A DNA stretch of 64,000 nt from an uncultured Chloroflexia bacterium (lineage in GTDB: Bacteria > Chloroflexota > Anaerolineae > Anaerolineales > Anaerolineaceae). The stretch is taken from assembly GCA_963749005.1 (NCBI GenBank), contig CAVVKI010000003.1, positions 5,533-69,532 of the forward strand. The letters run 5' to 3'. The notes under the pieces are model-generated. The model was not told the DNA's origin, searched no databases, and was given only the letters and a program-made list of their open reading frames with translations. How positions within the stretch are numbered: position 1 is the first letter of the stretch; the number at the start of each line of letters is the position of its first letter. Made by a program: the position numbers and the translations under genes. This document shows positions 5,400 to 28,782 of the stretch, piece after piece.

Positions 5400-5780
5400 A
5401 TGAATATAACTGAATTAATCGCAATTGTTGATGGGAAAGCACTCATATCAAATTTTGATGCAAATGTTGAAATTTTAGGCGGCTGTGGCGCAGATTTAAT
5501 GAGTGATGTACTGGCATCCATTGAACCAGGTGCTGTCCTGCTGACAGGCCTTTGCAATCCACAAGTAATTCGCACGGCTCTCATGGCAGATGTGGCGGCT
5601 GTGGTGCTTGTCCGCGGAAAAACACCGCCAGAGGCAACTATTGATTTGGCACAAAAAGAAGGAATACCACTGATAACCTCACCATCCGGTATGTTTGAAC
5701 TTTGTGGCAGGTTACATCTGGCAGGGTTACCAAGTTTGGAAAAAGTATTTGGCGACAACGAAGAGTGTGGCTGCGAATAG
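5400..5780 (+). CDS. DRTGG domain protein (hydrogenase-operon accessory/sensory)
   Basis: 126 aa. GADLMSDVL…LLTGL…VVLVRGKTPP…A…GIPLI pattern typical of DRTGG domains. Confidence 0.75.
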   Translation: MNITELIAIVDGKALISNFDANVEILGGCGADLMSDVLASIEPGAVLLTGLCNPQVIRTALMADVAAVVLVRGKTPPEATIDLAQKEGIPLITSPSGMFELCGRLHLAGLPSLEKVFGDNEECGCE

Positions 5781-5799
5781 CGATTTCTACAAAAATAAA

Positions 5800-6804
5800 A
5801 TGAACACACCCACCCCCCAAAAAACTCACATAATGACCGACCAGGAAGCAGAAAATATCTCCCGGGTTGAAGAACTTGCTTATGAAATTCGAATTAATGA
5901 GGTTATGAGTGAGTCACCTGTTTCACTGACACCTGACATGCACATGGGTGAAGTGCTCGAGATTTTTCGTAAAAAACGTATTTCAGGTGCACCTGTTATT
6001 ACATCCACTGGCAACCTGGTCGGTATTCTCAGCATGGAAGATCTGATTCGCTGCCTTATTGATTCGGACTTAAAAGCCAGCATTAATAAGTATATGACCA
6101 CGAAACTGATTACGGTTCTGAATACTGACCCATTGGTGGAAGCTTTGAAAAAGTTCGTAGCTACAAATTACGGGCGCTTACTGGTGGTAAATAAGGACCA
6201 GAAGCTGGCGGGTATTATTACCAAGGGAGATATCAATCGCGGCTTGTTAACTGCTCTCGAACACGATTACCAGACAGAAGAGGTAAAAAAGTACCGTGCC
6301 AGTCATCTATTTGATGATATTGAATCCGATCGTACCAGCCTGATCCTGCGCTACAAGATCAAGCAGGGCGATTTTACGCATGGAGGTCAGGCTTCCAGCA
6401 ATATTAAGAGGGCTTTAATCCGTCTGGGTGCATCGAAGCAAATTGCCCGCCGTTGTGGAATTGCAGTCTATGAAGCCGAGATGAACATGATTATTCACAC
6501 CACCGAAGGTGGCGTAATGCGGGTAGAAATTGAATCAAACCAGATTACTATTGATGCATATGATTACGGCCCAGGAATTCCGGATATTCAATTGGCCTTA
6601 AAAGCTGGATATTCAACTGCCAGTGAATCAGTACGGGAAATGGGGTTTGGTGCTGGCATGGGACTGGTAAACATTTCCCGTTGCGTCGACCAAATGAAAC
6701 TTGATTCGGTGTATGGCAAAGGAACGAGATTGAAAATGCGCTTATTCCTGGATAACGATCATCCGAACACAGGCTTAGAAATTGAATCTGAGGAGCGAAA
6801 TTAA
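5800..6804 (+). CDS. CBS-pair plus HATPase_c (RsbW/anti-sigma-type Ser/Thr kinase-like) protein
   Basis: Start taken at ATG 5800 (alternative 5833); the track start at 5695 would overlap the upstream gene. Two CBS motifs (ISGAPVITSTGNLVGILSMEDL; GRLLVVNKDQKLAGIITKGDI), then an ATPase G-box region YDYGPGIPD…GFGAGMGL. Confidence 0.75.
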   Translation: MNTPTPQKTHIMTDQEAENISRVEELAYEIRINEVMSESPVSLTPDMHMGEVLEIFRKKRISGAPVITSTGNLVGILSMEDLIRCLIDSDLKASINKYMTTKLITVLNTDPLVEALKKFVATNYGRLLVVNKDQKLAGIITKGDINRGLLTALEHDYQTEEVKKYRASHLFDDIESDRTSLILRYKIKQGDFTHGGQASSNIKRALIRLGASKQIARRCGIAVYEAEMNMIIHTTEGGVMRVEIESNQITIDAYDYGPGIPDIQLALKAGYSTASESVREMGFGAGMGLVNISRCVDQMKLDSVYGKGTRLKMRLFLDNDHPNTGLEIESEERN

Positions 6805-7151
6805 TGAACAATCTGGCACAAATTATTCAGGAATTGGATTTAACTTTGCTTACGGTAGAAAAGAATTTTGCTGACATCCAAGTATCATCTGGCTACACTT
6901 CAGATCTCTTGAGTTGTGTGATTGCGGGTGCACCGAACCAGGGGATCTGGGTTACCATTCAGGCACATCTTAATATTATTGCGGTGGCTGCTCTATTGGA
7001 GTTATCAGCGATCATTATCACCGAAGGTTCTGTACCGGATGCAGCCACCATTAAGAAAGCCAACGAAGAGGGTATCTCGCTTTTTAGCTCCAAAATGTCT
7101 TCGTTTTGGGTGGTGGGAAAATTGTGGGAGTCTGGCATTAGCGCCGAATAA
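6804..7151 (+). CDS. Second DRTGG domain protein
   Basis: 115 aa. SDLLSCV…IIAVAALLELSAIIITEGSVPD…A…GISLF. The start overlaps the upstream stop (TAATG). Confidence 0.7.
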   Translation: MNNLAQIIQELDLTLLTVEKNFADIQVSSGYTSDLLSCVIAGAPNQGIWVTIQAHLNIIAVAALLELSAIIITEGSVPDAATIKKANEEGISLFSSKMSSFWVVGKLWESGISAE

Positions 7152-7165
7152 CAGCCTTGCTACCC

Positions 7166-7915
7166 ATGCGGTCATTTAAAGCAGATTTACATGTGCACAC
7201 TGTCTTATCGCCCTGTGCTGAAATAGAAATGATTCCTCCGCTCATCGTCGAACGTGCCCTCGCCAATGGAATCTCGCTCATTGCTATCACCGACCATAAC
7301 GCTTCAGCCAACATTAAAGCGGTTCAAAAAGCTGCCGAGGGGACTGATCTGGCTGTCTTGCCTGGAATGGAAGTTCAGACGAAAGAAGATGTGCACGTCA
7401 TCTGTCTGTTTGACACATTAATGCAAATGGATCATTTTCAGAAAATCGTAGATTACAACTTGCCCACCATAAAAAATAAGGCCAGTTTTTTTGGTCATCA
7501 ATTAATAGTTGACGAAACAGGGTCGTATCTTGGAACTGAAGAACGTCTCCTGATCACATCTACTTTTTTATCCATTGATACAGTTTGGGCTGAAGTGGAA
7601 ATGTTAGGCGGCCTGATGATTCCCGCTCACATTAATCGAAAGGTTAATGGCTTGATCGAAATTTTAGGATTTGTTCCGCAGGAAATACCGATTGCTGCTC
7701 TGGAAATCTCACGCCACATCACCCCCTCGGAAGCCTTCCAATCTTATCCACAAATTAAAAATTACTCTTTAATTCAGAATGGCGATGTCCATCGTTTGAA
7801 TGAATTTTTAGGATCAACAATCTTTGAAATTCAAGAGCCAAATATTTTAGAAATTCGTCTAGCCCTGGCGCACAAAGAGGGGCGTGATTGTCGAATCGAA
7901 CCCCACAACCTATAG
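7166..7915 (+). CDS. PHP (polymerase/histidinol phosphatase) domain metal-dependent phosphoesterase
   Basis: DLHVHTVLSPCA…ISLIAITDHN…PAHINR motifs. ATG 7166 is preferred over TTG 7157. Confidence 0.75.
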   Translation: MRSFKADLHVHTVLSPCAEIEMIPPLIVERALANGISLIAITDHNASANIKAVQKAAEGTDLAVLPGMEVQTKEDVHVICLFDTLMQMDHFQKIVDYNLPTIKNKASFFGHQLIVDETGSYLGTEERLLITSTFLSIDTVWAEVEMLGGLMIPAHINRKVNGLIEILGFVPQEIPIAALEISRHITPSEAFQSYPQIKNYSLIQNGDVHRLNEFLGSTIFEIQEPNILEIRLALAHKEGRDCRIEPHNL

Positions 7916-8107
7916 TTTTACAAACAATTTCGACTGGACGAACTTCCATGTTTGATGTATATTTAATACTTCGTGAAATTTTTTACAATCGATCATTACT
8001 CCTATATGTTTTATGACTTTTGGCAATTATAGTTTACCCCCGGTGAAGGTACACTTAAAACGAACAAATATTACCGAATCAATCCTAATTTTTCATGGAG
8101 CCCATTA

Positions 8108-8614
8108 ATGGTGAAATATCTCAAAAATATACCGGCTAATGACCCCCTATTGATCCCTGAACAAAAAGCAATTATCGATCAGGTGATATCAGAGAATTGC
8201 AGCAAACCCGGCGCAACCATGGTCGTTTTGAGCGAATTACAAAATAAAATTGGTTATATTTCAGAGGCATTACAGGCCTATATTGCCGATGAGCTGGAAG
8301 TGCCGGTATCATCGGTACATGGCGTGGTCACTTTTTATTCCTTCTTCACCACCATCCCACGCGGAAAACATACCATCAAATTCTGTATGGGAACTGCTTG
8401 CTATGTTGGGGGTGTTCCCCAACTGATGGAAAAAGCAAAACAGGTATTAGGCATTGATATTGGTGAAACCACCCCAGATGGCAATATAACCCTGGAAATT
8501 TGCCGCTGTGTAGGAGCATGCAGCCAGGCTCCGGTCATTGTAATTGATGAAGAGGTGATGGGCCGTGTGAAACCCAGTAAGGTTCCTCAAATGATTAAGA
8601 AAGTTCAGGATTAA
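8108..8614 (+). CDS. NuoE/HydC-like [2Fe-2S] thioredoxin-fold subunit (copy 1)
   Basis: 168 aa. CMGTACYVGG … CRCVGACSQAPV (C-x4-C … C-x3-C). Confidence 0.85.
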   Translation: MVKYLKNIPANDPLLIPEQKAIIDQVISENCSKPGATMVVLSELQNKIGYISEALQAYIADELEVPVSSVHGVVTFYSFFTTIPRGKHTIKFCMGTACYVGGVPQLMEKAKQVLGIDIGETTPDGNITLEICRCVGACSQAPVIVIDEEVMGRVKPSKVPQMIKKVQD

Positions 8615-8625
8615 AAGAGTATATT

Positions 8626-9180
8626 GTGAAAGAAATCTCTCTCCACATTCTCGATATTGCAGAGAACAGTGTTGCAGCTGGAGCCACAAAGGTGACCATT
8701 GCAGTCCTGGAGGATATTGCCTACGACCGCTTGCGTCTCTGTGTTACGGATAATGGCAAAGGAATTGCGCCTGAAATGATTGCCAGCGTACTGGATCCTT
8801 TTACCACATCGCGCACAACCCGCAAGGTTGGTCTTGGAATCCCTCTCCTTAAAGCAGCCGCTGAAATGTGCCAGGGATTTTTGAATCTTGAATCTCAGCC
8901 AGGTATCGGTACCAGTCTGACTGTCGAATTTAAACGTAATCATATTGACCGTATGCCGATGGGTGATCTTACAGGCACAATTCTGCAATTGGTGATCAGC
9001 TATCCCGAAATTAACTGGGTTTTTATTTACGCAGTGGACGAAAATGAATTTGTTTTTGACGATCAGTTACTGAAAAAAGAACTGGAAGGAATCTCTTTAA
9101 CAGAACCAGTTGTTCTTTCATTTATCCGACAAGAAATTGAAAGCGGTTATTTGGAAATTCAACCATCATTGGAATTTTAA
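8626..9180 (+). CDS. Histidine-kinase-like ATPase (HATPase_c only) protein
   Basis: 184 aa. N-box ILDIAENSV, DNGKGI, TTRKVGLGIPLLK. Its position between NuoE-like and ferredoxin genes matches hyd operons of Thermoanaerobacter-type organisms. Confidence 0.7.
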   Translation: MKEISLHILDIAENSVAAGATKVTIAVLEDIAYDRLRLCVTDNGKGIAPEMIASVLDPFTTSRTTRKVGLGIPLLKAAAEMCQGFLNLESQPGIGTSLTVEFKRNHIDRMPMGDLTGTILQLVISYPEINWVFIYAVDENEFVFDDQLLKKELEGISLTEPVVLSFIRQEIESGYLEIQPSLEF

Positions 9181-9204
9181 TAAATATTAAGAAAGAGGAA
9201 ACAA

Positions 9205-9573
9205 ATGCCTACCATCAATAGTTTGGACGATTTAAAAAGAGTACGGGAAGAAGCTTTACGAAAAAGAGATATGAAGAGTGCCGCAGGGCAGAAACAGATA
9301 ATTATCGGCATGGGTACCTGCGGAATTGCTGCTGGTGCTCGCGATACCATGAAGGCCATTCTGGAAAAAATTGAAGGAGAAGGGTTATCCGGCATATCTG
9401 TTACACAAACCGGCTGTATTGGCTTATGTGAAATGGAACCCATTGTTCAGGTTCAAATTGGTGACTCAGAAAAAGTAACGTACGGAAAAGTAAACTCTGA
9501 AATAGCCGCACAAATAGTGGAGAAACATGTATTGGGCGGAAACGTTTTTAAAGAATATGTAATTAATTTATAA
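9205..9573 (+). CDS. Thioredoxin-like [2Fe-2S] ferredoxin (HydD-like)
   Basis: 122 aa. GMGTCGIAAGA … TGCIGLCEMEPIV. Good SD (AAGAGGAAA). Confidence 0.75.
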   Translation: MPTINSLDDLKRVREEALRKRDMKSAAGQKQIIIGMGTCGIAAGARDTMKAILEKIEGEGLSGISVTQTGCIGLCEMEPIVQVQIGDSEKVTYGKVNSEIAAQIVEKHVLGGNVFKEYVINL

Positions 9574-9610
9574 GTATTAAGTACCGATTATTGGAAGCAG
9601 GTTACCAAGT

Positions 9611-11392
9611 ATGAAATATTTTCGTTCCCATGTTCTTGTATGTGTTGACCCGGAATGTCTCGCAAAGGGTGCACATCAGATATTAGATTCTCTCAATGAT
9701 GAACTGGTTGCTACCGGGTTGATTGACGAGATACAGGTTCTGGAAACTTCTCGCATCGGTGCGTGTGCATCCGGACCGGAAATTATGGTTTATCCTGAAG
9801 GTGTTCATTACGTCGGCCTCACGCCAGACGATCTTCCATATCTGGTGGATGAGCACTTCTTAAAAGGCCGTATCGCCACGAAGTTTCAGGCCGTAACGAA
9901 AAAAATTACAGATGAAGAGCTTTCCGCGCCGACATCCAAAGAAGTCCGGATCGTATTAAGAAATTGCGGTGTCATTGACCCAGAAAATATCGAGGACTAT
10001 ATCGCCCAGGATGGTTATATGGCACTCGCTAAAGCCTTGAGCGAAATGAGTTCCGATGACATTCTGGCTGAAATGAAAAAATCCGGGTTGCGCGGGCGCG
10101 GTGGGGCTGGATTTCCCACTTATTTGAAATGGCAATTCACCCGCGATTCCAAATCAGATCTACGCTATATCGTTTGTAATGCAGATGAAGGTGACCCTGG
10201 CGCTTTTATGAATCGCCGTGTTCTTGAATCTGATCCTCATTCTGTCATAGAAGGTATGGCCATTGCTGCCTATACCATTGGAGCACGGTACGGTTATATA
10301 TACTGTCGGGCTGAATATCCGATCGCTGTGCAAACACTCAACCTGGCAATCAAACAAGCGAAAATGATGGGCCTGCTTGGCGAGAATATCATGGGCTCCG
10401 ATTTTTCATTCGATCTGGAAGTGAGAATGGGTGCCGGTGCCTTTGTTTGTGGGGAAGAAACCGCCTTGATGAACTCGATTGAAGGCAAAAGAGGCGAACC
10501 ACGACCTCGTCCTCCCTTCCCGTCAGTAAAAGGGCTCTGGGAAAAACCTACCAATATTAATAACGTTGAAACGTATGCCAATGTTCCCCAAATTATCTTA
10601 AAAGGAGCAGAATGGTTTGCCAGTTTTGGTACCGAAAAGAGCAAGGGCACCAAAACATTCGCACTTGCCGGTGATATCAATCATACCGGCTTGATCGAAG
10701 TTCCACTTGGAATCAGCTTGCGAGAGATTATTTTTGATGTGGGTATGGGCATAAAGGACAATAAAGGCTTTAAAGCTGTGCAAACCGGTGGTCCAATGGG
10801 CGGCTGCTTACCTTCCGATGAACTCGATTTATCTGTCGATTATGAATCATTGATTGCAGCAGGTTCGATGATGGGTTCCGGCGGAATGATCGTCATGGAT
10901 GAAGATACCTGCATGGTGGATATTGCCCGCTATTTCATGGATTTTACCCAGGACGAAAGCTGTGGAAAATGTACCCCCTGCCGTGTAGGCACAAAGCGAA
11001 TTCTGGATGTTCTGGAACGCATTTGCGATGGTAAAGGGCAGGAAGGTGATATTGAATTATTGGAAGAGTTATGTGTCCAGGTCAAATCTAATTCACTGTG
11101 TGGTCTTGGCCAGGGCGCTCCAAACCCTGTGGAAAGCACATTGCGCCATTTTCGTTCAGAATACGAAGCCCACATTTATGAAAAGAAATGCCCGGCTAAA
11201 GTTTGCAAGGCGTTGATTCGATATGAAATTCATGAAGAAGCCTGCACCGGTTGTACTGTCTGTGCCCGAAACTGTCCGGTTGACGCGATCAGCGGCGAAA
11301 GACGCTCTCCGCATTTTATCAATCCGGATGTTTGTGTTCGCTGTGGTATTTGCTTACAGGTGTGTAATTTTAATGCGATCGAGGTAGTTTAA
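9611..11392 (+). CDS. NuoF/HydB-like FMN- and NAD(H)-binding flavoprotein subunit with a C-terminal 2x[4Fe-4S] ferredoxin domain (copy 1)
   Basis: 593 aa. GLRGRGGAGFPT (FMN/NADH), ESCGKCTPCR (N3 cluster), N-terminal Trx-like domain with CVDPEC…GAC, and C-terminal CTGCTVCARNCP plus CVRCGICLQVC. Confidence 0.9.
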   Translation: MKYFRSHVLVCVDPECLAKGAHQILDSLNDELVATGLIDEIQVLETSRIGACASGPEIMVYPEGVHYVGLTPDDLPYLVDEHFLKGRIATKFQAVTKKITDEELSAPTSKEVRIVLRNCGVIDPENIEDYIAQDGYMALAKALSEMSSDDILAEMKKSGLRGRGGAGFPTYLKWQFTRDSKSDLRYIVCNADEGDPGAFMNRRVLESDPHSVIEGMAIAAYTIGARYGYIYCRAEYPIAVQTLNLAIKQAKMMGLLGENIMGSDFSFDLEVRMGAGAFVCGEETALMNSIEGKRGEPRPRPPFPSVKGLWEKPTNINNVETYANVPQIILKGAEWFASFGTEKSKGTKTFALAGDINHTGLIEVPLGISLREIIFDVGMGIKDNKGFKAVQTGGPMGGCLPSDELDLSVDYESLIAAGSMMGSGGMIVMDEDTCMVDIARYFMDFTQDESCGKCTPCRVGTKRILDVLERICDGKGQEGDIELLEELCVQVKSNSLCGLGQGAPNPVESTLRHFRSEYEAHIYEKKCPAKVCKALIRYEIHEEACTGCTVCARNCPVDAISGERRSPHFINPDVCVRCGICLQVCNFNAIEVV

Positions 11393-11459
11393 AAACCTGG
11401 GGATATGGTTCGAAAATTGAACTTTTCCCGGAGCTGAAAAAATTTTGAAGGAGCTGTGC

Positions 11460-11942
11460 ATGACGATTGAAGGAGTTTTTAATATTGAAATACAAGAAGC
11501 CGTTGATAAAGCAATTTTGTCACATGGAGAGTCGCGTGCTGAATTAATTCCTATTTTGAACGATGTCAATCGTGCGCTGGGTTATTTGCCGGCAGAAGCC
11601 CTGGAAGAAATCAGCCACCGCCTTAAGTCTCCGCGATCTTCACTATTCTCGGTGGCAAGTTTTTATCATATGTTATCAACCAAACCGCGCGGAAAGCATG
11701 TGATTCAATTTTGCGAGAGTGCACCATGTCATGTCGCTGGCGGTCGCGAAGTATGGCAGACATTAAGAGACCTTGTCGAGCTTGAAGATGGTGAAACATC
11801 AACGGATGGAAAATGGTCCTTGATCACCACCAGCTGTTTGGGTCTCTGCGGCGTCGGTCCCGTCATTGTGATCGACGAGGATGCCTATGGCAATGTGAAA
11901 CCTGATCAAATCGCCGAAATTTTAGCGAAATACACGGATTGA
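11460..11942 (+). CDS. hoxE: NuoE/HoxE-like [2Fe-2S] subunit (copy 2)
   Basis: ATG 11460 preceded by GAAGGAG. CESAPCHVAGG … CLGLCGVGPV. Confidence 0.85.
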   Translation: MTIEGVFNIEIQEAVDKAILSHGESRAELIPILNDVNRALGYLPAEALEEISHRLKSPRSSLFSVASFYHMLSTKPRGKHVIQFCESAPCHVAGGREVWQTLRDLVELEDGETSTDGKWSLITTSCLGLCGVGPVIVIDEDAYGNVKPDQIAEILAKYTD

Positions 11943-11953
11943 GGAGAATACCA

Positions 11954-13588
11954 ATGAAAACGATACGATCAATGGTTTTAGTATCCAGCGATCCCATAAG
12001 TATGGAGCGTGGTGGTCAATCAATTTTTGATAATCTACAAACTGAAATTCAAAAGTTCGGCATACAGGATGAAATATCGATCACTCAAGTCGGAGATATC
12101 GGCCGCCACGATGCCTTACCAGTCGTGATTGTCTATCCGGAAGCAGTCATCTACGGCCCGGTTCTTCCCGAAAATGTAGCCTTCCTGGTAGAAGAACATT
12201 TATATAAAGGACGTGTGGCCAGTGAATTTCAAGCCTCACCAAAAGAACTTACCGGTAAAATTGCCTGGCTAAATGCTCGCAAAGGTACCATGCCAGCCGA
12301 ACAGCGCATTGTTCTCCAAAGAGCAGGCATCATCGATCCCACCAATATTGAAGACTACATCTTACATGAAGGTTACCAGGCAATTGGTAAAGTCCTTGCA
12401 GAAATGACTCCCAAAGATGTTATGGATGAGTTGAAAAATTCCGGTCTGCGTGGTCGGGGTGGTGCAGGTTTCCCCACAGGTCTCAAATGGACATTTGTCG
12501 CAGGTGCCAAAGGCGATAAGAAATATGTCATCTGTAATGCAGATGAATCCGAACCTGGAACTTTCAAGGATCGATTAATCCTGGAAGGTGACCCGCATAG
12601 TATTATCGAAGCTTTGATGATTGCAGCTTATGCGGTTGGATCGGATGAGGGTTATCTCTACATTCGCGGAGAATATGCTCTCGCTCAGGAAAGAGTGAAA
12701 ATTGCCATCTCGCAGGCGCGTGAAATGGGTCTGCTTGGTAAAAATATCTTCGGAAGTGAATTTAGCTTTGATTTACACATTCATAGCGGTGCAGGTGCTT
12801 ATATCTGCGGGGAAGAAACAGCCTTGCTGGAGTCAATCGAAGGTCGTCGTGGTGAACCCCGTGCAAGACCACCTTACCCAACCACATCCGGTTTATGGGG
12901 TAAGCCAACCCTTGTCAACAATGTCGAGACCCTGGCAAATGTGCCTGCAATAATCCGCAATGGTGCTGAATGGTATAAAAGTTTTGGAACCCCATCGAGC
13001 CCGGGCACAAAGGTATACACAATTCTCGGCAATGTAAATGTGACTGGATTAATAGAAGTTCCTATGGGAATCACCCTTCGCGAAGTCATATCCATTTATG
13101 CCAAAGGCATGAAAAATAATGCCACTTTCAAAATGGCACAAACAGGCGGTTCCAGTGGATCCATTATTCCAGCCAGTCTGCAGGATACCCCTATGGATTT
13201 CGATTCCTTCCAAAAGGCAGGTGTTGCCCTCGGTTCTGGTGCATTGTTAATTTGTGATGATAACAACTGCGTCGTTGATCTGGCAAAGGTTCTCCAAAAC
13301 TTCTTCCGCAAAGAAAGCTGCAGTAAGTGCAATCCCTGTCGCATTGGCAACGAACGGGCTTTTTCAATTTTAGAAAACATTTCCCAGGGTACTGGCACCA
13401 TGCAGGATTTGGATGACTTGCTGCTAATCAGCAAAAATCTGAATGAACTTTCAAACTGTGGTTTAGGACAAACAGCCGGAACACCAGTTCATGATATATT
13501 GACCCACTTCCGAGCCGAAGTGGAAGCTCACATAAAATTAAAAGTATGTCCCGCTGGCATTTGCCAAATGAGCGGCATCCGAATATAA
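11954..13588 (+). CDS. hoxF: NuoF/HoxF-like flavoprotein subunit (copy 2, no C-terminal ferredoxin domain)
   Basis: ATG 11954 preceded by GAGGAG. GLRGRGGAGFPT and ESCSKCNPCR. The N-terminal Trx-like domain has no Cys, and the protein ends shortly after the core. Confidence 0.9.
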   Translation: MKTIRSMVLVSSDPISMERGGQSIFDNLQTEIQKFGIQDEISITQVGDIGRHDALPVVIVYPEAVIYGPVLPENVAFLVEEHLYKGRVASEFQASPKELTGKIAWLNARKGTMPAEQRIVLQRAGIIDPTNIEDYILHEGYQAIGKVLAEMTPKDVMDELKNSGLRGRGGAGFPTGLKWTFVAGAKGDKKYVICNADESEPGTFKDRLILEGDPHSIIEALMIAAYAVGSDEGYLYIRGEYALAQERVKIAISQAREMGLLGKNIFGSEFSFDLHIHSGAGAYICGEETALLESIEGRRGEPRARPPYPTTSGLWGKPTLVNNVETLANVPAIIRNGAEWYKSFGTPSSPGTKVYTILGNVNVTGLIEVPMGITLREVISIYAKGMKNNATFKMAQTGGSSGSIIPASLQDTPMDFDSFQKAGVALGSGALLICDDNNCVVDLAKVLQNFFRKESCSKCNPCRIGNERAFSILENISQGTGTMQDLDDLLLISKNLNELSNCGLGQTAGTPVHDILTHFRAEVEAHIKLKVCPAGICQMSGIRI

Positions 13589-13626
13589 ACCTGAAATTAT
13601 AGAATTGGATTAAGGAGAAAATCGAT

Positions 13627-15561
13627 ATGTATCATCTAATCATCGATGACAAAGAAATCGAAGTACCGGAAGGGACAACTGTTTTAAATGCAGCCCGTAT
13701 CGCGGGAGTTGAAATTCCAACGCTTTGTGACCATCCAGCACTTGAACCTTATGGTGGCTGCCGCCTTTGTCTGGTGGATATTGAAGGGGCACGGACGTTA
13801 CAACCGGCCTGTACTTTACCAGCCAGCGAAAATATGGTTGTGCATACCCAAACCAAAAAAGTAAAAGATGCGCGTAAGTTCGTGTTATCTATGATCTTTA
13901 GCGAACGCAACCATTTTTGCCCTTACTGCCAGGTAAGCGGTGGTGATTGTGAATTGCAAAATTCTGCCTACGCAGAAGATATAACTCACTGGCCACTACA
14001 ACCAAATTGGCATCCTTTTGAAGTAGATGCCTCACATCCTTATTTTGTCCTTGATCACAACCGCTGCATTTTATGCCGGCGCTGTGTGCGTGCCTGTGCT
14101 GAGCTGGTAGGAAATTATACGCTGGGAATGGAAGAACGCGGTTCCAAGACGATCCTCGTTGCAGATTTAGGGGTACCCCTCGGAAGCAGCTCGTGCATCT
14201 CTTGCGGCGTATGTGTCCAAATTTGCCCAACTGGCGCATTGATTGATCGCTGGAGTGCTTATCGCGGTCATGAAACGGATATCCAAAAAACTGACACTAT
14301 TTGTGTAGGTTGTTCACTCGGCTGTGGAATCGACGTGCTCACCCGAAATAATAGTCTCGTTCGTATTGAAGGTGATTGGGATGCAGAAATTAACGGCGGC
14401 GTTCTTTGTGAAGTCGGCCGCTTCTTGCCCATGGCTGATAAACGCCAAAAGATTGTCACACCCATGATTCGTAAAAATGGCAGTTTGAAAGCTGCTACCT
14501 GGGAAGAAGCCATGTCAGTCGTCTATAGCAAACTACAGCCCCTGATTGGCCATCCTGAGGATGGCGTTGCTGCTATCGCTTCTACACGTCTGCCCGTCGA
14601 GAGCCTGGATTTATTCAAGCAGATATTCTCTGATAAATTCGGCAGCAAAATGGTAACCTCAACAGAAGAGGGCTATTTTACAGCCGGACTCGATGGATCA
14701 GAAATAGAGCTAACACATCAGGAAGGACTTAAAGCCATTGGAAAATCCGATCTGATTCTGACGATTGGGGTTGATTTGACCAATGACCATCAAGTGGCTG
14801 GCTTTTTCGTGAAAAGGTCCATTGAAAAAGGGACCAAAGTTATCCCTGTCTACACAGAAAAAACCGGAATGGATACATTAACCCAGTATGCCACTTTGAT
14901 TCGCGAAGGCAGTGAAATTAATTTTATCCAGGCTCTCAATGCAAAATTGAATGGCGAAGCGTATGAAGAGAAATTAACCAGGAGTGGCGTTCCTTCCTCA
15001 AAATTAGATAAAATTGCAGATATGCTGAAACAGGCTGAAAATGTGTTGTTAATTTTCGGTAGTGAATTTTCTGTTAAAAACAAAGCGGAAGTCGTTCAAG
15101 CAATCGTACAACTGGCGAAAAATAACCATTACAACTATGTTAATTTTAAAGGCAAGGCGAACTCTACCGCAGCCCTGGAATTGGACCTCGAAAACGTTTT
15201 TGGAGTCAATAACCATCAGGTTGCCTATCTGGCACTCGGCGATGAGGAACCCAGTCAATTGCTGTTGCAACGCGTTGAGGATGTTCCATTCATGGTTGTT
15301 CAAGCCAGTTATCATTCAGCTATCACCGCGAAAGCAGATGTTGTTCTGCCGGTTACAAATTGGCTCGAGCAAGATGGTCACTATATTAACGCCGATGGAA
15401 TTGTTCAGAAAGCAATTGGCGCGTTGCAACCATCCGTTGATGTGCGTTCTAACCAAGCAGTTCTGGAAAATCTGGCGGCAGGTCTCCAACTGGAAGTAAA
15501 CCAGGAATGGATACAATCCATTTTGCAATCAACAAGGTCTGCTGAATTTCAGGCGGCATAA
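13627..15561 (+). CDS. hoxU: NuoG/HoxU-like Fe-S subunit with an extended molybdopterin-oxidoreductase-like C-terminal domain
   Basis: 644 aa. [2Fe-2S] C-x10-C-x2-C-x13-C at the N-terminus; HFCPYCQVSGGDC (His-ligated 4Fe-4S); CILCRRCVRAC and CISCGVCVQICP; CVGCSLGC…C (Mo-enzyme-type 4Fe-4S). About 380 further aa resemble the non-catalytic NuoG C-terminal domain. No H-cluster motifs. Confidence 0.8.
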   Translation: MYHLIIDDKEIEVPEGTTVLNAARIAGVEIPTLCDHPALEPYGGCRLCLVDIEGARTLQPACTLPASENMVVHTQTKKVKDARKFVLSMIFSERNHFCPYCQVSGGDCELQNSAYAEDITHWPLQPNWHPFEVDASHPYFVLDHNRCILCRRCVRACAELVGNYTLGMEERGSKTILVADLGVPLGSSSCISCGVCVQICPTGALIDRWSAYRGHETDIQKTDTICVGCSLGCGIDVLTRNNSLVRIEGDWDAEINGGVLCEVGRFLPMADKRQKIVTPMIRKNGSLKAATWEEAMSVVYSKLQPLIGHPEDGVAAIASTRLPVESLDLFKQIFSDKFGSKMVTSTEEGYFTAGLDGSEIELTHQEGLKAIGKSDLILTIGVDLTNDHQVAGFFVKRSIEKGTKVIPVYTEKTGMDTLTQYATLIREGSEINFIQALNAKLNGEAYEEKLTRSGVPSSKLDKIADMLKQAENVLLIFGSEFSVKNKAEVVQAIVQLAKNNHYNYVNFKGKANSTAALELDLENVFGVNNHQVAYLALGDEEPSQLLLQRVEDVPFMVVQASYHSAITAKADVVLPVTNWLEQDGHYINADGIVQKAIGALQPSVDVRSNQAVLENLAAGLQLEVNQEWIQSILQSTRSAEFQAA

Positions 15562-15587
15562 TGATTGTAGAAAAGAGGAAATAATCG

Positions 15588-16130
15588 ATGAGTAAACCAA
15601 AAGTAGCAACAGATTGGATGGCTGGCTGTGCCGGCTGTCATATGTCCTTACTGGATATGGACGAGCGCATCTTGCAGGTGCTTGATCTTGTTAATTTACG
15701 TTCTTCACCCATCACTGACTTGAAAGAGGCAGACGAAGATGGTGTTGCAGTAGGAATCCTCGAAGGAGGAATTAATAACACTTCCAATGAACATCAGGCA
15801 AAATTAATGCGTTCGCGCTGTACATATTTAGTCGCCCTGGGCGATTGTGCTGTGTTCGGAGGCGTTCCCGCCATGCGCAACTTTTTTACACTGGAAGAGA
15901 CTTTGCGACGTGCTTATGTAGAAACAGAAAGCACGGATAGCGAAGGCTTTATCCCTACCGATCCCGAATTGGCTGTACCCACTCGTGTGCGGGCAGTTCA
16001 GGAAGTCGTTCCTGTTGACCTTCACGTTCCTGGCTGTCCTCCGGATGCCGATGTTATATTTTACGTGTTGGCTGAGCTGGCTCAAGGTCGCATCCCGGAA
16101 TTAAAGGGCGACAAACTGCATTGGCACTAG
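15588..16130 (+). CDS. hoxY: [NiFe] hydrogenase small subunit, group 3 (HoxY-like)
   Basis: 180 aa with no Tat signal. CAGCHMSLLD, GDCAVFGG and PGCPP proximal-cluster cysteines. Confidence 0.85.
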   Translation: MSKPKVATDWMAGCAGCHMSLLDMDERILQVLDLVNLRSSPITDLKEADEDGVAVGILEGGINNTSNEHQAKLMRSRCTYLVALGDCAVFGGVPAMRNFFTLEETLRRAYVETESTDSEGFIPTDPELAVPTRVRAVQEVVPVDLHVPGCPPDADVIFYVLAELAQGRIPELKGDKLHWH

Positions 16131-16138
16131 GAGAAATA

Positions 16139-17566
16139 ATGGTTGCACAAAAAATAACAATCGAACCGGTAACCCGGATTGAAGGACATGCGAAGATCAC
16201 AATTCACACCAAAGAGGATGGATTGGTTGACCATGCCTACCTGCATGTCAATGAATTCCGTGGCTTTGAAAAGTTTTGCGAAGGCAGAATGGTTTTCGAA
16301 ATGCCTTTGATTACTCCCCGAATTTGTGGGATCTGTCCAGTCAGCCATCACCTGGCGGCAGCAAAAGCCGGCGATGCTGTACTGGGAGCTCCCCCTCCCC
16401 GCCCGGCTTCGCTACTCCGGGAATTAATGCACATGGGTCAAATTATCCAATCGCATGGCATGCATTTCTTTGAATTGGCTGGACCTGATTTACTGTTGGG
16501 TTTTGATGCAGACCCAGAAATTCGCAATGTGGTTGGCTTGATTCAGGCTGCTCCAGAAATCGCAATTAAAGCAGTGGCTTTACGCAAGTACGGTCAGGAA
16601 ATTATCCATTTGCTGGGTGGCCGTCGCATTCATCCAGTATTTGCTGTTCCAGGCGGTGTAAACAAAGCCTTAACCATTACTGAACGTGATGAAATTCTGG
16701 CAGGTCTGGATGAAACGATTGCAACAACTCAGCTTGGCATCCAAATAATGCGTGATTGGGCTGAGAAAAATATGGAAGACGTCCAAAAATTTGCTGTGTT
16801 TCCCACCGGCTACCTTGGTTTAATTACACCAGAAAATGGTCTGGAATTGTACGACGGCAAAATTCGCCTGGTTGATCAGACAGGGATCCAACTCGAACGT
16901 TTCGATGTAGCTGATTATCTGGAGAATATCTCCGAACATGTTGAAAACTGGTCTTATTTGAAGTTCCCATATTACAAAAAAATGGGTTGGCCGGCAGGTG
17001 TTTATCGGGTGGGACCATTAGGTCGACTTAACATTGCTGATAAGATTGATACACCCCTGGCACAGGAAGAATTTTTGCGCTATCGCAAAATCAATGATGG
17101 CCGGCCGATCGAAAATACGCTCTATTATCACTATGCCCGCCTGATCGAAACATTGTTCGCTGCCGAACGCGTGCAAGTACTTCTGGATGATGAGGACATA
17201 CTTTCTAATGACATCCTCAACACCCAACATAATTTCCAGGGTGTAGGTGTCGGCGTTATTGAAGCACCACGCGGCACATTGATCCACCATTATCAGGCGA
17301 ATGAAAATGGACAGCTTGAGAAAGTCAATCTCATTGTTTCCACCGGACACAACAATTATGCTATGAGCAAAGCCGTGGATATGGTCGCAAAAACATATAT
17401 TACCGGACCGAATGTATCCGAAGGCATCCTAAACAGGATTGAAGCGGCTGTTCGTGCACATGATCCCTGCCTTTCTTGTTCCACCCACGCAGTCGGTCAA
17501 ATGCCGATCATGATTGATATTGTTAATCCGGAAGGAAAAACGATCCAGACTATCCGCAGGGATTAA
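16139..17566 (+). CDS. hoxH: [NiFe] hydrogenase large subunit, group 3 (HoxH-like)
   Basis: ATG 16139 preceded by GGAG. RIEGH, L1 motif [10 protein letters not shown] and L2 motif DPCLSCSTH, followed by a 25-aa cleavable C-terminal extension. Confidence 0.95.
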
Positions 17567-17569
17567 TGG

Positions 17570-18130
17570 ATGATTGCTGAAAGTAAAGATTCTGCCAATC
17601 AGCAGCGTATTTTGACGACCGATTGGCAGAATCTGCCTCGCACTTTAATCGTAGGCTACGGCAACCCTGACCGTGAAGATGATGGCGTCGCCTGGCATGT
17701 TTTACAATCAATCGCATATAAGTTCGGAATCCCAATATCTAATGATACCGATGTAGGCATTTTTCCGGATGGGAACCAACTCGATTTTTGGTTTAATTTG
17801 CAATTGATGCCGGAAATGGCTCCAGATATGTTGGTCTACCAGCGTATCTGTTTCATTGACGCGCATACGGGTGCAATTCCTGATGAAATCAGGATCGAAC
17901 ATATCCAGTCAAAGTTCCAGAATTCACCACTGACCCACCACCTTACGCCGGAAACAATCGTCTCAATCCTGGAGCATTTATATCAACATAAACCAGAAGT
18001 GATATTGGTATCAATACGCGGCTATCAATTTCGTTTTGAACATGGACTTTCAGCAAAAACTTTCCGCTTGAGCCGAAAAGCCGCGGATAGGGTTGTTTCC
18101 TGGATATTAAATAGTCATATAGAAGAATAA
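17570..18130 (+). CDS. hoxW: Hydrogenase maturation endopeptidase (HoxW/HycI family)
   Basis: LIVGYGNPDREDDGVAW, FIDAH, SPLTHH. Confidence 0.85.
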   Translation: MIAESKDSANQQRILTTDWQNLPRTLIVGYGNPDREDDGVAWHVLQSIAYKFGIPISNDTDVGIFPDGNQLDFWFNLQLMPEMAPDMLVYQRICFIDAHTGAIPDEIRIEHIQSKFQNSPLTHHLTPETIVSILEHLYQHKPEVILVSIRGYQFRFEHGLSAKTFRLSRKAADRVVSWILNSHIEE

Positions 18131-18257
18131 CCTTCTACAACCTTTCTCATGTGACTATTAGCAAGCCGATCGAGGAGGTTTACCACTTATTAACTTACCT
18201 CTTGAATGATAAAAAAGAGTATACATTCAGAACTGATTTTTCTTAACAATATTCCAG

Positions 18258-18743
18258 GTGAACGTACTCATCATGATCGATAAAGCCGCAATTAAGCCAA
18301 CATTACAAAGTATTCCCTGGTTAATGGATTTAACTCCGTTACAGATAGATACCCTGCGCCAAATTTCTGGTACTCGCTTCCTAGAATGCGGTGAAGTTCT
18401 TTTCCGGGAAGGCGATGACGATAATCTCATTTATATTCTCTCCGAAGGGAAGTTGACGATCGAGATAACCGTGCCGTATCATGGTCAAATTTGTATCTAT
18501 CATGCTGAACCCCTGGATGTCGTCGGCTGGGATAGTATGACACCGGTCGCAAGACAACGGATAACATCCGCACGGGCAATTCAAAATTCATCAGTTATTT
18601 TCATTAATGCCACCGAGTTGACGGAGTTATGCGATAGCGACCCGGCTCTAGGATTAATCCTGATGCGCCGTATCTCAAATGTAATTACCAGTCGCATGCT
18701 ATCCATGCGGATTAAATTATTGGATTTGTTGATCCAGAAATAA
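18258..18743 (+). CDS. Stand-alone cyclic-nucleotide-binding (cNMP/Crp-type effector) domain protein, no HTH
   Basis: 161 aa. FLECGEVLFREGDDDNLIYILSEGKLTIEI … ARQRITSARA. The protein is too short to carry a DNA-binding domain. Confidence 0.7.
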   Translation: MNVLIMIDKAAIKPTLQSIPWLMDLTPLQIDTLRQISGTRFLECGEVLFREGDDDNLIYILSEGKLTIEITVPYHGQICIYHAEPLDVVGWDSMTPVARQRITSARAIQNSSVIFINATELTELCDSDPALGLILMRRISNVITSRMLSMRIKLLDLLIQK

Positions 18744-18835
18744 GGCAGTCTATCGAAATCATAGATGGTTTGGTTTGGTGCTAGCATGCGCATTGGACCG
18801 GCGATTTTTGACCTTTTTGGTATTATAATTACCAA

Positions 18836-19180
18836 ATGCATGAGCTTGCGGTAACAGAGAATATTTTGAGCATTGCCAAAAAGCATGCAATCATCGCAAA
18901 TGCAAGTAAAGTAACCGATGTTTATATAGTAATTGGCAAATTCTCAAGTATTGTTGATGATAGCGTACAATTTTACTGGGATATCCTCTCTCAAGAAACC
19001 ATTTGTGAGAATTCAACATTGCACTTTAACCGTATTCCTGCCCGTTTTAGCTGCCTTGATTGCTCAATGGAATATGACGTCGATGCTGAAATGATGCCAT
19101 GCCCAAATTGCCAGTCGGTTCGCGTGAAAATTATCAGCGGTGAGGAATTTTGGCTGGATAGCATTGAGATCGAAAGGTAA
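18836..19180 (+). CDS. hypA: Hydrogenase nickel incorporation protein HypA
   Basis: MHELAVTENIL N-terminus (MHE Ni site). Zinc site CLDC…CPNC. Confidence 0.9.
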   Translation: MHELAVTENILSIAKKHAIIANASKVTDVYIVIGKFSSIVDDSVQFYWDILSQETICENSTLHFNRIPARFSCLDCSMEYDVDAEMMPCPNCQSVRVKIISGEEFWLDSIEIER

Positions 19181-19187
19181 AAAAGTA

Positions 19188-19859
19188 ATGAGCCAACAAA
19201 AAGTACAAATTGTTGAAAAAATAATGGATGCGAATGACCAGATAGCTTCACAAAATCAGGACATTCTCGATAGCCACCACATTTTTGCAATCAACATTAT
19301 GGCTTCTCCCGGTGCAGGGAAAACCAGCGTAATTTTGAAAACCATTCAAATGCTGAAGGATCACATAAGAATCGCTGTAATTGAAGGTGATACTGCTGCA
19401 GTTACTATTGATGCAGACAAAGTCTCTGCCCTGGGTGCACCTGCAGTTCAGATCAACACGGGCGGCCAATGCCATCTGGATGCACCAATGATGAATCGAG
19501 CGCTCTCCTCCCTTGATTTAACTCAAATCGATTTGCTTATCATCGAAAATGTCGGTAATCTCATTTGCCCGGCATCCTTTAAAATTGGTACGCACGCCAA
19601 CATCGTGATCGCCAGTGTACCTGAAGGTGATGACAAGCCGTATAAGTACCCCAACATTTATCGCGGTATCGACACACTTATCTTGAATAAAACCGATCTC
19701 TTACCTTACATCGATTTTCGTAAAGATTATTTCCAACAAGGGATTGAACTGCTTAACCCCGGTCTTGAGATTTTCGAACTTTCCTGCAAAACCGAAGATG
19801 GATTTCCTGCCTGGATCGAGTGGTTGAAATCCAAAGTAACCACCCAGAAGAATTTGTAA
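19188..19859 (+). CDS. hypB: Hydrogenase nickel incorporation GTPase HypB
   Basis: ATG 19188, just after the hypA stop. P-loop SPGAGKTS, ENVGNLICP, NKTDL. Confidence 0.9.
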   Translation: MSQQKVQIVEKIMDANDQIASQNQDILDSHHIFAINIMASPGAGKTSVILKTIQMLKDHIRIAVIEGDTAAVTIDADKVSALGAPAVQINTGGQCHLDAPMMNRALSSLDLTQIDLLIIENVGNLICPASFKIGTHANIVIASVPEGDDKPYKYPNIYRGIDTLILNKTDLLPYIDFRKDYFQQGIELLNPGLEIFELSCKTEDGFPAWIEWLKSKVTTQKNL

Positions 19860-19867
19860 ACATAAAA

Positions 19868-22159: not shown

Positions 22160-22170
22160 AAGAGGAAAAT

Positions 22171-22431
22171 ATGTGTTTAGGTATCCCCGGAAAAATTGTT
22201 GAAATTAACCAAACCATCGGCGTCAAAATGGCAAAAATCGATTTTGGCGGCGTATTCCGTGAAGCTTGTATTGAAGCTATTCCAGACGCAAAAATAGGGG
22301 ATTACACCATCATTCATGCTGGTTTCGCTATAAATGTCCTCAGCGAAGAAGAAGCGCTCGATACGCTTTCTTTACTGCAGGAAATTTCGGATTTTAATAG
22401 CGAGTTAAGTGTAGATGACTCTGAAATTTGA
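22171..22431 (+). CDS. hypC: Hydrogenase assembly chaperone HypC
   Basis: [13 protein letters not shown]-terminus with the essential Cys2. Confidence 0.9.
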
Positions 22432-23533
22432 TTTTTCAAGCTCTTTTCGAAATCCCCGCTTGGTTCAGGGGGTTGTGACAGAAATTCAAAAATGCATTAC
22501 CCAACCCTGGATGATGATGGAAATCTGTGGTGGCCAGACCCATGCTATCATGCAATACGGCCTCGACCAAATTTTACCACCTGAAATAGAGCTGGTTCAT
22601 GGCCCTGGCTGTCCGGTATGTGTTACCCCACTGGATCAAATCGACCGTGCACATGCTATCGCGCAATTACCCAATGTCATTTTTTGTTCTTTTGGCGACA
22701 TGTTACGCGTACCTGGTTCAACTACCGATCTTTTCAAACTTCGAGCGGAGGGTGCTCAGGTACGAATTGTTTATTCTCCACTTGACGCAGTTAAGATTGC
22801 GCAGGAAAACCCGGATAAACAAATCGTGTTTTTTGCGATTGGTTTTGAGACAACGGTGCCTGTTAATGCGGCCAGTGTTTTGCAAGCCCGCGCATTAGGT
22901 TTGAAAAATTTTTCTATCCTGGTCTCTCAGGTTACGGTACCTCCAGCCATGCATGCCATTTTGAGTTCCCCGGCTAACCGCGTTCAAGCATTTTTAGCGG
23001 CAGGTCATGTTTGTGCAGTAATGGGTTACTGGCAATACCATAGCATTGCTGAACGCTATCAAGTTCCGATCGTTGTGTCTGGCTTTGAACCATTAGATTT
23101 ACTGCAGGGCATTTTAAAAACCGTTCAGCAGTTGGAAAGCGGAAAACATTTCGTTGAAAATTGTTATCCCCGTGTCGTATCCGAACACGGCAATGCAGCT
23201 GCCCAAAAAATGATAAACCAGGTATTTGAGCCATGTGACCGAAATTGGCGCGGAATTGGACTTATACCCATGAGTGGACTCGGTTTGAGATCTGAATTTG
23301 CACAATTTGATTCAGAGAATCGCTTCCACGTCGAGCACATTCAGACGCAAGAACCTGAAGTTTGCATTGCCGGTGAAATTTTACAAGGACTGAGCAAACC
23401 AAATCAATGTTCTGCGTTCGGCACGTTGTGCACCCCAGTCAACCCACTGGGTGCTCCCATGGTTAGTTCGGAGGGTGCATGTGCGGCCTATTACCGTTAT
23501 GGCAGCCTGACCGCGGAAGAGATGGGGAAATAA
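22415..23533 (+). CDS. hypD: Hydrogenase formation protein HypD
   Basis: 372 aa. [14 protein letters not shown], and C-terminal Cys-rich motifs. Confidence 0.95.
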
Positions 23534-26390: not shown

Positions 26391-26729
26391 TTAGGTTTTC
26401 AGTAACCCAATTTCAATCTGACCGGCAATAATCCGAGTTGGGTATGCTATGGTGGGCTCCACCGCAGGTAAGGTTAACGCCTTGCCAGTGATGATATCAA
26501 ATTTGGCACCATGCCGCGGACATGTGACAACATGATCTTCAAGGTCACCATCACCTAATGGCCCATCATCATGTGTGCAGCGATCGCCGATGGCAAAAAT
26601 ATCACCACCCACATTGAAAATAACAATTGGGTCATCACCAATTTCCACAAAGATACGCTCGCCGGCAGATAATTCATCGTAAGGGCAAACTGCTAAAAAT
26701 GTGTAACGGTTTTCATCTATCTCCCCCAT
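26391..26729 (-). CDS. Rieske [2Fe-2S] ferredoxin-type protein (last gene of the suf operon)
   Basis: CTHDDGPLG … CPRHGAKF Rieske motifs. The start overlaps the sufU stop. Confidence 0.85.
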   Translation of the reverse strand: MGEIDENRYTFLAVCPYDELSAGERIFVEIGDDPIVIFNVGGDIFAIGDRCTHDDGPLGDGDLEDHVVTCPRHGAKFDIITGKALTLPAVEPTIAYPTRIIAGQIEIGLLKT

Positions 26730-27127: not shown

Positions 27128-27142
27128 TGTAATTAATTCTTT

Positions 27143-28366: not shown

Positions 28367-28392
28367 AGAAAATGCCTCATTGAAAATCTTAT

Positions 28393-28680: not shown

Positions 28681-28782
28681 TAATTTCCCTCCAAAGGAAT
28701 AAGCTGCGAATCTATTAATTTTATCATATTCAAATTTAATTATTACTTACTGAAGGCTAAAATTTCCTTTGAAAGGATAATT

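Follow-up and report, generated by a model that had tools for sequence, protein, structure and literature searches.

The closest described relative of the locus analyzed here is the electron-bifurcating [NiFe] hydrogenase NiFe-HydABCSL of Acetomicrobium mobile (PDB 7T2R/7T30). Its operon contains the genes for HydS and HydL next to those for HydABC homologues, among which HydA has no H-cluster, and three more genes, for HydD, HydP, and HisK (Feng et al., PMC8880783). Since the five subunit genes of this enzyme are Anamo_1675-1678 and Anamo_1681 (PMC8880783; PMC9304861, legend to Figure 1), two genes lie between those for HydC and HydB; HisK and HydD are absent from the purified enzyme (PMC8880783, PMC9304861). 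Such NiFe-Bfu enzymes have been listed in Synergistetes and in the archaeal Halorhabdus only, and none in Chloroflexi (Schut et al., PMC9304861), and a paper on metagenome-assembled genomes (MAGs) names the cytosolic enzyme of an Anaerolineae member HoxEFUHY. Here, we analyzed a stretch of 64,000 nucleotides from contig CAVVKI010000003.1 of an uncultured Chloroflexia bacterium (the window), in which positions 5400-24603 form one co-directional block of plus-strand genes (Table 1). This block is an Anaerolineae version of the A. mobile (type 3 Bfu) operon, with the order HydC (E1)-HisK-HydD-HydB (F1)-E2-F2-HydA (G)-HydS-HydL-HydP, followed by the hyp genes. Its most informative feature is the contrast between the two NuoF-like proteins F1 and F2 at residues diagnostic of electron bifurcation, a contrast that went unremarked in the first-pass annotation of this DNA.

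The gene order described in that annotation is borne out by the list of open reading frames (ORFs), by Pfam, and by NCBIfam, with minor corrections of start codons, and there are indeed two NuoE/NuoF-like pairs, E1F1 and E2F2, upstream of a single NuoG-like/[NiFe] core consisting of G (HydA), S (HydS), and L (HydL), after which comes P (HydP), the maturation protease. The first pair and its neighbors had, however, been taken for a [FeFe] hydrogenase set without its HydA. Instead, the order E1-HATPase-ferredoxin-F1 ... G-S-L-protease is that of the A. mobile operon, with the HATPase protein in the position of hisK, and 8108-11392 is the ordinary HydC-HisK-HydD-HydB front half of a NiFe-Bfu operon (PMC8880783), continued by HydA-HydS-HydL-HydP at 13627-18130. 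As the first pair belongs to the A. mobile-type order, the unusual element is E2F2, inserted between HydB and HydA, and not E1F1.

Matches to solved structures are in line with this assignment. F1 aligns over its full length with A. mobile HydB (7t2r_B, 847 bits) and with Thermoanaerobacter kivui HydB (849 bits), whereas F2 reaches 601 bits against A. mobile HydB and ends where the C-terminal domain of the latter begins. E1 scores 144 bits with T. kivui HydC, its best match, and 128 bits with A. mobile HydC, which in turn is the best match of E2 (134 bits); overall, the A. mobile chains rank best for L, G, F2, and E2, and a close second for F1 and E1. The comparison with A. mobile NiFe-HydABCSL, to which the first-pass annotation had already pointed, is thus well founded in both operon order and structure matches, with a shared backbone of HydC-HisK-HydD-HydB-HydA-HydS-HydL-HydP and a HydA that lacks the H-cluster and has the ligands of clusters A1-A5. 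The differences are the additional E2F2 between HydB and HydA, a G that is ~30% identical to HydA, an N-terminal domain of F1 with three Cys, possibly the upstream DRTGG/CBS-HATPase/PHP set, and the host, which belongs to Chloroflexota rather than to Synergistota.

The residues that separate bifurcating from non-bifurcating flavoproteins of this family are Ala/Glu and Met as opposed to Thr/Ser and Lys/Ser/Ala in the NADH loop (positions 232 and 234 of Thermotoga maritima HydB), Phe as opposed to Tyr near the flavin mononucleotide (FMN), and the presence or absence of GGPSG and of extra Fe-S domains (Losey 2020, PMC7311640). Schut et al. 2022 (PMC9304861) repeat these criteria and add clusters B2-B5, which non-bifurcating homologues lack, and the three motifs also serve as criteria in a preprint of 2026 on the cyanobacterial Hox enzyme. 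We compared the residue states across 57 orthologues of F1 and 67 of F2. In F1, A198-F-M200 (within the NADH loop PGAFMN), F278 (within GAGAF near the FMN), the SLBB motif GGPMG (a GGPxG in which the middle residue is variable), C434/C472/H521/C527/C532, and eight C-terminal Cys are invariant or nearly so. The protein is therewith predicted to possess all of the main elements of a BfuB, namely, the FMN/NADH domain, A-x-M, Phe, a GGPSG-type motif, clusters B1 and B2, and the C-terminal 2x[4Fe-4S] domain that would hold B3 and B4. In F2, the corresponding residues are T208/K210 (T-F-K), Y288, and GGSSG, all invariant and all of the non-bifurcating kind: the NADH loop PGTFKD lies inside ADESEPGTFKDR, the complex-I consensus, with which the FMN/NADH-site motifs of F2 are identical, and the residues near the FMN read GAGAY. 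F2 has no C-terminal ferredoxin domain, and hence no B3/B4, but terminates 7 residues past the CxxxxC of a B2-like site; this site (C444, H531, C537, C542) is invariant, and the B1 cysteines are retained as well.

The N-terminal domains deserve separate mention. In F2, the Cys that would ligate B5 are replaced by Ser, Ser, and mostly His, with the third position not being invariant. In F1, there are only three Cys (C11, C16, C52), compared to the four of BfuB cluster B5, two of which (C11 and C52) are lost in ~20% of orthologues, and cluster B5 is therefore doubtful in F1. We note that B5 is regarded as a dead-end cluster (Feng et al., PMC8880783). With this exception, the locus has the expected sequence features of a type 3 NiFe-Bfu: E1 conserves C93, C98, C134, and C138 in 100% of cases, as needed for the [2Fe-2S] cluster C1 of BfuC, and the genes for group 3 [NiFe] small and large subunits lie directly downstream of BfuA (G). 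The four Cys of E2 are likewise conserved at 100%, as for a [2Fe-2S] cluster. A related observation concerns HydD (9205-9573), which, like the N-terminal domain of F1 (9611-9900), has three Cys compared to the four of thioredoxin-like [2Fe-2S] proteins, with losses in ~15-20% of orthologues; the clusters of these two domains may be absent or unusually ligated. In two relatives, moreover, the ORF containing F1 comprises ~1030-1046 amino acids (L040, 4578-7661; L077, 4607-7747), which suggests either an in-frame upstream extension or a fusion with the region before it, unless it is an artifact of stop-to-stop ORF extraction.

In its Thr/Lys NADH loop, its Tyr near the FMN, the absence of GGPSG, and the absence of the C-terminal 2x[4Fe-4S] domain, F2 resembles complex-I NuoF/Nqo1 and the flavoprotein subunits of non-bifurcating NADH-dependent hydrogenases (Syntrophomonas wolfei Hyd1B, Syntrophus aciditrophicus HydB). 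It differs from them in its position within a [NiFe] rather than a [FeFe] operon, in its HydB-type N-terminal thioredoxin-like domain (devoid of cluster ligands), and in its B2-like site. It also differs from cyanobacterial HoxF, which, according to the 2026 Hox preprint, retains the bifurcation motifs. F1 and F2 are 49.6% identical, and E1 and E2 33.6%. To place F2, we built a rough neighbor-joining tree from which the diagnostic columns were left out; it covered 135 sequences, each representing a 50%-identity cluster and bearing only a generic name ("NuoF" or "HndC"). The nearest neighbors of F2 were at least 80% of the K/Y type in 81 of 97 valid bootstraps, giving moderate support to a position of F2 within a non-bifurcating lineage rather than as a recent copy of F1. 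A recent tandem duplication of F1 had been considered and is unlikely at this level of identity, F2 being no nearer to F1 than to unrelated representatives. The proximity of E2 to A. mobile HydC leaves room for an ancient duplication as the origin of E2F2.

Turning to the catalytic core, G contains Molybdop_Fe4S4 and molybdopterin-like C-terminal domains (Pfam) and aligns across the whole of the NCBIfam NuoG model, and its Cys/His ligand sets for A1-A5, including A3, are invariant in 20 homologues, as expected of a BfuA. In Foldseek, the AlphaFold model of G matches 7t30_A best, along its entire length and at 30% identity; this model is of moderate quality (predicted local distance difference test score 67), with poor Fe-S regions, and was used for the fold match only. 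C14, C17, C87, and C150 of HydS are conserved at 100%, and HydL carries the NiFe-binding motifs, including DPCLSCSTH, with a C-terminal extension past the His. The description of this dimer as Hox-type, as previously proposed, holds only approximately. The locus does resemble group 3d HoxEFUYH in being, as far as its genes tell, of the soluble NAD(H)-linked [NiFe] enzyme type with NuoE/F/G-like diaphorase subunits, a short small subunit, and a protease. However, HydL is nearer to A. mobile HydL (7t2r_D, 591 bits) than to MvhA (421 bits) or Hox (5xf9_D, 416 bits), and whereas HoxU is a ~240-amino-acid truncated NuoG, G has 644 amino acids, with A5 and the molybdopterin-like domain. The two hallmarks of group 3d, a short HoxU and a large subunit within the Hox clade, are therefore both missing from the predicted proteins.

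A synteny comparison across related genomes, which the first-pass annotation had suggested, is informative as to how old this arrangement is. Homologues of G number in the thousands; our scan for relatives, with one genome per species, found 574, and the best 80 of these all belong to Chloroflexota, mostly to Anaerolineae, with some Caldilineae and Ardenticatenia. About 20 kb was covered per genome, and 67 loci had enough upstream DNA to be informative. Both pairs are present in the order of the window at 59 of these 67 species-level loci, with collinearity extending down to ~51% identity in G, and because the order is collinear in 59 species-level genomes, it is not a product of chance. The exact G protein of the window has no database record, but three relatives with G identities of 92%, 72%, and 57% share the same locus, with hisS upstream and a methyltransferase gene downstream. 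Carriers of the full locus include the cultured Leptolinea sp. HRD-7 (L060, AP024710), and a further complete carrier genome is OY969772 (L017). Median gaps across loci are 33 nt between F2 and G and 11 nt between E2 and F2, the latter being close enough for coupled translation. Relative to the window, median identities are 75.3% for F1, 75.3% for F2, 76.7% for S, 75.1% for L, and 52.8% for G; both pairs are under strong purifying selection and constrained like the catalytic subunits.

The remaining eight informative loci are variants. Three contain E2F2 without E1F1 (L025, L026, and L035; L028 is alike but has too little upstream DNA to be counted), one contains E1F1 without E2F2 (L071), and four have no flavoprotein gene adjacent to the core. 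All single-module variants retain G-S-L-P intact, and HydD is kept in both kinds. In L071, the stretch between F1 and G (9580-9970) holds remnants of E2 residues 2-43 and F2 residues 516-549, while remnants of PHP, E1, or HisK precede HydD in L025 (6720-7360) and L026 (6400-7330); L035 gave no clear remnants in the tested stretch. The remnants in L071, L025, and L026 therefore indicate that the single-module state arose by loss from an ancestor with both modules. The F2-only state arose at least two times (in L025 and in L026/L035/L028), and E2F2 was lost once. Rather than a cassette swap or merger, as first thought, the double arrangement is thus the ancestral, conserved state across Anaerolineae. 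We also note that the sensory genes (DRTGG/CBS-HATPase/DRTGG/PHP) are gone or decayed in the F2-only loci but intact in the F1-only locus, such that, in these four variant genomes, the sensory genes seem to go with the bifurcating pair.

In the loci that comprise only G-S-L, the upstream genes are unrelated (ABC transporter, mreBC). At one Caldilineaceae locus (L046, 11581-13953), a G-S-L core without adjacent NuoE/F is followed by a 790-amino-acid fusion of GltD-like (Fer4_20, Pyr_redox_2) and HdrD-like (Fer4_17, CCG) parts, which may serve this core as another electron partner.

Taking these data together, we propose that a single HydA-HydS-HydL core accepts either E1F1 or E2F2 as its electron module, a reading to which we give a probability of roughly 0.5. 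Each pair would dock on HydA (G) at the site that is used by the HydBC/NuoEF module in all solved relatives, to form two versions of the enzyme, E1F1-G-S-L and E2F2-G-S-L. The first of these would couple H2 to both NAD(H) and ferredoxin (bifurcation/confurcation), with electrons reaching ferredoxin via C1-B2-B3/B4, as described for A. mobile (Feng et al., PMC8880783). The second would connect H2 with NAD(H) alone, because F2 lacks B3/B4 and has an FMN pocket of the non-bifurcating kind. Losey et al., in agreement with established thermodynamics, put the limit of NADH-only H2 production at a few tens of pascals of H2, and the E2F2 form could thus produce H2 from NADH only at very low H2, for instance, beside a hydrogen-consuming methanogen, which would fit a life next to hydrogenotrophs. 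We can extend this proposal, tentatively and at odds well below even, to a mode-switching hydrogenase with two exchangeable modules on one core, in which the co-conserved CBS/HATPase/DRTGG/PHP and HisK-like proteins set the choice of module post-transcriptionally according to the energy or redox state of the cell, so that one hydrogenase would suffice for these fermenters to move between high H2 and the low H2 of syntrophic growth.

Several points weigh against the proposal of alternative modules. The docking of E2F2 on G is deduced from gene order and from the behavior of the family, and the single-module genomes could carry the missing module elsewhere, outside the ~20 kb covered. It is also not obvious that expressing two modules 1:1 from one operon, for a single core, would be economical. 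With respect to the nature of the second pair, A. mobile HydC is no more distant from E2 than from E1, and E2F2 may have arisen by an old duplication within Bfu, not by import of a complex-I-type pair. The B2-like Cys/His site is held to be unique to bifurcating enzymes (Feng et al., PMC8880783), yet F2 has kept it. Finally, the diagnostic motifs are correlative, and since cyanobacterial HoxF bifurcates without a tethered ferredoxin domain (2026 Hox preprint), the absence of the C-terminal domain from F2 proves little by itself.

Other arrangements of the same subunits have to be set against this proposal. The collinearity, tight spacing, and equal conservation of both pairs in 59 species would also be expected if the two were permanent parts of one larger complex with two simultaneous FMN/NADH sites, either as a mixed dimer, (G-S-L)2·E1F1·E2F2, or with E2F2 stacked on the bifurcating module. 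In A. mobile and in cyanobacteria, the pentamers assemble into dimers or larger oligomers through HydC-HydC and HydB-HydL contacts, and mixed protomers are therefore conceivable. However, natural variants have lost one pair while leaving the core and maturation genes intact, the HydA/NuoG of known relatives has a single docking site for a flavoprotein pair, and G, with its A1-A5 ligands and 30% identity to A. mobile HydA, gives no sign of a second one; we therefore consider a permanent complex of this kind unlikely. Less likely still is that E2F2-G-S-L is the sole hydrogenase, NAD(H)-linked in the manner of Hox, with E1-HisK-HydD-F1 serving a catalytic partner elsewhere or acting as a redox sensor. 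The F2 pair does adjoin G, the Anaerolineae enzyme is annotated as HoxEFUHY in the MAG literature, BfuBC pairs without an adjacent BfuA (type 4) have been described (Schut et al., PMC9304861), some relatives have an extra Fdh-Bfu cluster beside the locus, and E1F1 was lost at least two times but E2F2 once. Against this stands the characterized A. mobile operon, in which HydC-HisK-HydD-HydB is followed by HydA-S-L and HydB and HydC are subunits of the enzyme (PMC8880783); in addition, the F1-only locus L071 retains G-S-L-P, with no E2F2 found in its ~20 kb, and the Fdh-Bfu clusters of the relatives possess their own HydB/HydC.

Two further possibilities separate the pairs from the hydrogenase altogether. 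The motif of the NADH site in F2 follows the complex-I consensus, F2 scores above the cutoff of one NCBIfam NuoF model, and G aligns over the entire NuoG model, all of which could suggest that E2F2, alone or together with G, feeds NADH electrons into a different complex, for example, an 11-subunit complex I, and is merely co-located with the hydrogenase. The strictly kept, closely spaced order E2-F2-G-S-L-P of at least 59 species, the closeness of G to the hydrogenase subunit HydA in both sequence and structure, and the presence in F2 of a HydB-type N-terminal domain and a B2-like site, both missing from complex-I NuoF, leave this very improbable. Alternatively, the upstream set could be a [FeFe] hydABC-type cassette whose hydA was lost or exported, and which serves an orphan HydA in trans or was recently merged with the [NiFe] genes. 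The HydC...HydB part of [FeFe] HydABC(D) operons (T. maritima, T. kivui, Caldanaerobacter) has homologues of E1, the HATPase protein, HydD, and F1 in collinear order, and F1 is as near to the HydB of the T. kivui [FeFe] enzyme as to that of the A. mobile NiFe enzyme. The sensory set together with the HydC-HisK-HydD-HydB order presumably also occurs in [FeFe] operons of Thermoanaerobacter-like bacteria. Nevertheless, the window has no subunit with an H-cluster: the motifs TSCCPxW, MPCxxKxxE, and ExMxCxxGCxxG are absent in strict or loose form from all six frames of the whole 64 kb, in agreement with the earlier statement that the window contains no hydA, and catalysis can be assigned to the [NiFe] dimer. 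With an arrangement that is ancestral and stable across the whole class and an order that is native to a characterized NiFe enzyme (PMC8880783), this is, in our view, the least credible of the explanations considered, and we retain the proposal of two alternative modules on one core.

The features of the locus and of the adjoining SUF operon are summarized in Table 1. Judged by the gene calls of orthologues, the longest ORF begins too far upstream for the CBS-HATPase, E2, F2, and large-subunit genes; for the CBS-HATPase protein, the start at 5800 was taken from orthologous calls (323-335 amino acids), while its longest ORF begins at 5695.

Table 1. Features of the hydrogenase locus and the neighboring SUF operon, with positions in the window.
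Feature	Position	Strand	Evidence and remarks
DRTGG protein, opens the putative sensory/regulatory set	5400-5780	+	Pfam PF07085, E 9e-8; in 53/59 double-module loci
CBS pair + GHKL-type HATPase protein	~5800-6804	+	Pfam CBS E 6e-29, HATPase_c E 1e-8
Weak second DRTGG-like protein	6804-7151	+	Pfam DRTGG E 4.5e-4, under family cutoff; conserved in relatives
PHP-domain phosphoesterase-like protein	7157-7915	+	Pfam PF02811, E 3e-8
AT-rich gap of 192 nt, sole long gap of the locus	7916-8107		between PHP and E1
E1, HydC/BfuC-type NuoE-like [2Fe-2S] subunit	8108-8614	+	Pfam PF01257, E 1e-45
"HisK", HATPase_c domain only, no phospho-acceptor domain	8626-9180	+	Pfam HATPase_c E 4e-15
HydD-like small thioredoxin-like ferredoxin, 122 aa, three Cys only	9205-9573	+	weak Pfam PF01257 and NCBIfam 2Fe-2S ferredoxin
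F1, HydB/BfuB NuoF-like flavoprotein, predicted bifurcating type, 593 aa	9611-11392	+	C-terminal 2x[4Fe-4S] domain
E2, second NuoE-like [2Fe-2S] subunit	11460-11942	+	Pfam PF01257, E 1e-43
F2, second NuoF-like flavoprotein, predicted non-bifurcating type, 544 aa	11954-13588	+	no C-terminal 2x[4Fe-4S] domain
G, HydA/BfuA, NuoG-like, 644 aa, no H-cluster	13627-15561	+	Pfam; best sequence match 7t2r_A
HydS, short small subunit, one [4Fe-4S] cluster	15588-16130	+	Pfam PF01058
HydL, [NiFe] large subunit	16139-17566	+	Pfam PF00374
HydP, hydrogenase maturation endopeptidase	17570-18130	+	NCBIfam TIGR00072 E 1e-10, below cutoff
Protein with cNMP-binding domain only, 161 aa, between hydP and hypA	18258-18743	+	Pfam PF00027, E 1e-11; in 33/59 double-module loci
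hypA, hypB, hypF, hypC, hypD, hypE, [NiFe] maturation	18836-24603	+	Pfam HypA, CobW/HypB, HypF domains, HypC, HypD; AIRS/AIRS_C for HypE
sufC	31621-32391	-	
sufB	30165-31577	-	
sufD	28783-30135	-	
sufS	27143-28366	-	
NifU-like gene	26729-27127	-	
Rieske-type ferredoxin	26391-26729	-	

The junctions from E1 to the protease gene range from -10 to 67 nt, as expected from the short or overlapping junctions noted at first pass, and E2 is preceded by a GGAG ribosome-binding site located 7 nt upstream. There is, as had been observed, no terminator-like site in the intergenic gaps of the structural block, nor a promoter-like one. However, both kinds of site occur at chance frequency, and because their counts equal the shuffled expectation, the scans are uninformative on transcription units. 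The assignment of HydP draws on the full coverage of the TIGR00072 profile and on its conserved position right after HydL, with no match in Pfam. The maturation genes described as hoxW followed by hypABFCDE are all present, but the gene for the cyclic nucleotide monophosphate (cNMP)-binding protein had been overlooked. Pfam detects no DNA-binding domain in this protein, and a terminator-like hairpin (18770-18801) lies 3' of its gene. In several close relatives (L007, 14739-19705, and also L010, L012, L013, and L015), the space between hydP and the cNMP gene is occupied by a formate-dehydrogenase-type Bfu cluster, which is absent from the window. It consists of a HydC-like gene, a 549-amino-acid HydB paralogue, and a 916-amino-acid FdhA; this paralogue is 70% identical to F1 and has A-F-M, GGPMG, and the C-terminal domain, but no N-terminal domain.

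Further downstream, a complete SUF Fe-S assembly operon (26391-32391, minus strand) is located ~2 kb past hypE, so that a locus coding for some 20 predicted Fe-S clusters adjoins Fe-S assembly genes. A pentose-phosphate gene group on the minus strand (39045-44339) comprises a 937-amino-acid transaldolase-phosphoglucose isomerase fusion (39045-41858), RpiB (41868-42323), and a split transketolase, with separate genes for its C-terminal (42326-43093) and N-terminal (43176-44339) parts.

We found no description in the literature of a second NuoEF pair in the NiFe loci of Anaerolineae, including in the supplement of Schut et al. 2022, in keeping with the earlier impression that this gene complement had not been described. 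The double-module arrangement is thus widespread but unrecognized, and the present labels "HoxEFUYH" and stray "NuoEF" mask the duplication as well as the bifurcating module. In anaerobic digesters, sediments, and the subsurface, few fermenters are as abundant as Anaerolineae, whose growth improves in the presence of hydrogen-consuming partners. Should a single [NiFe] core indeed be able to be coupled either to NADH and ferredoxin or to NADH alone, this would provide them with a compact means of balancing their redox carriers over a wide range of H2 pressures. Bifurcating and non-bifurcating HydB/NuoF homologues acting on the same partner subunits would, furthermore, constitute a natural comparison for how the flavin site of Bfu enzymes achieves bifurcation.

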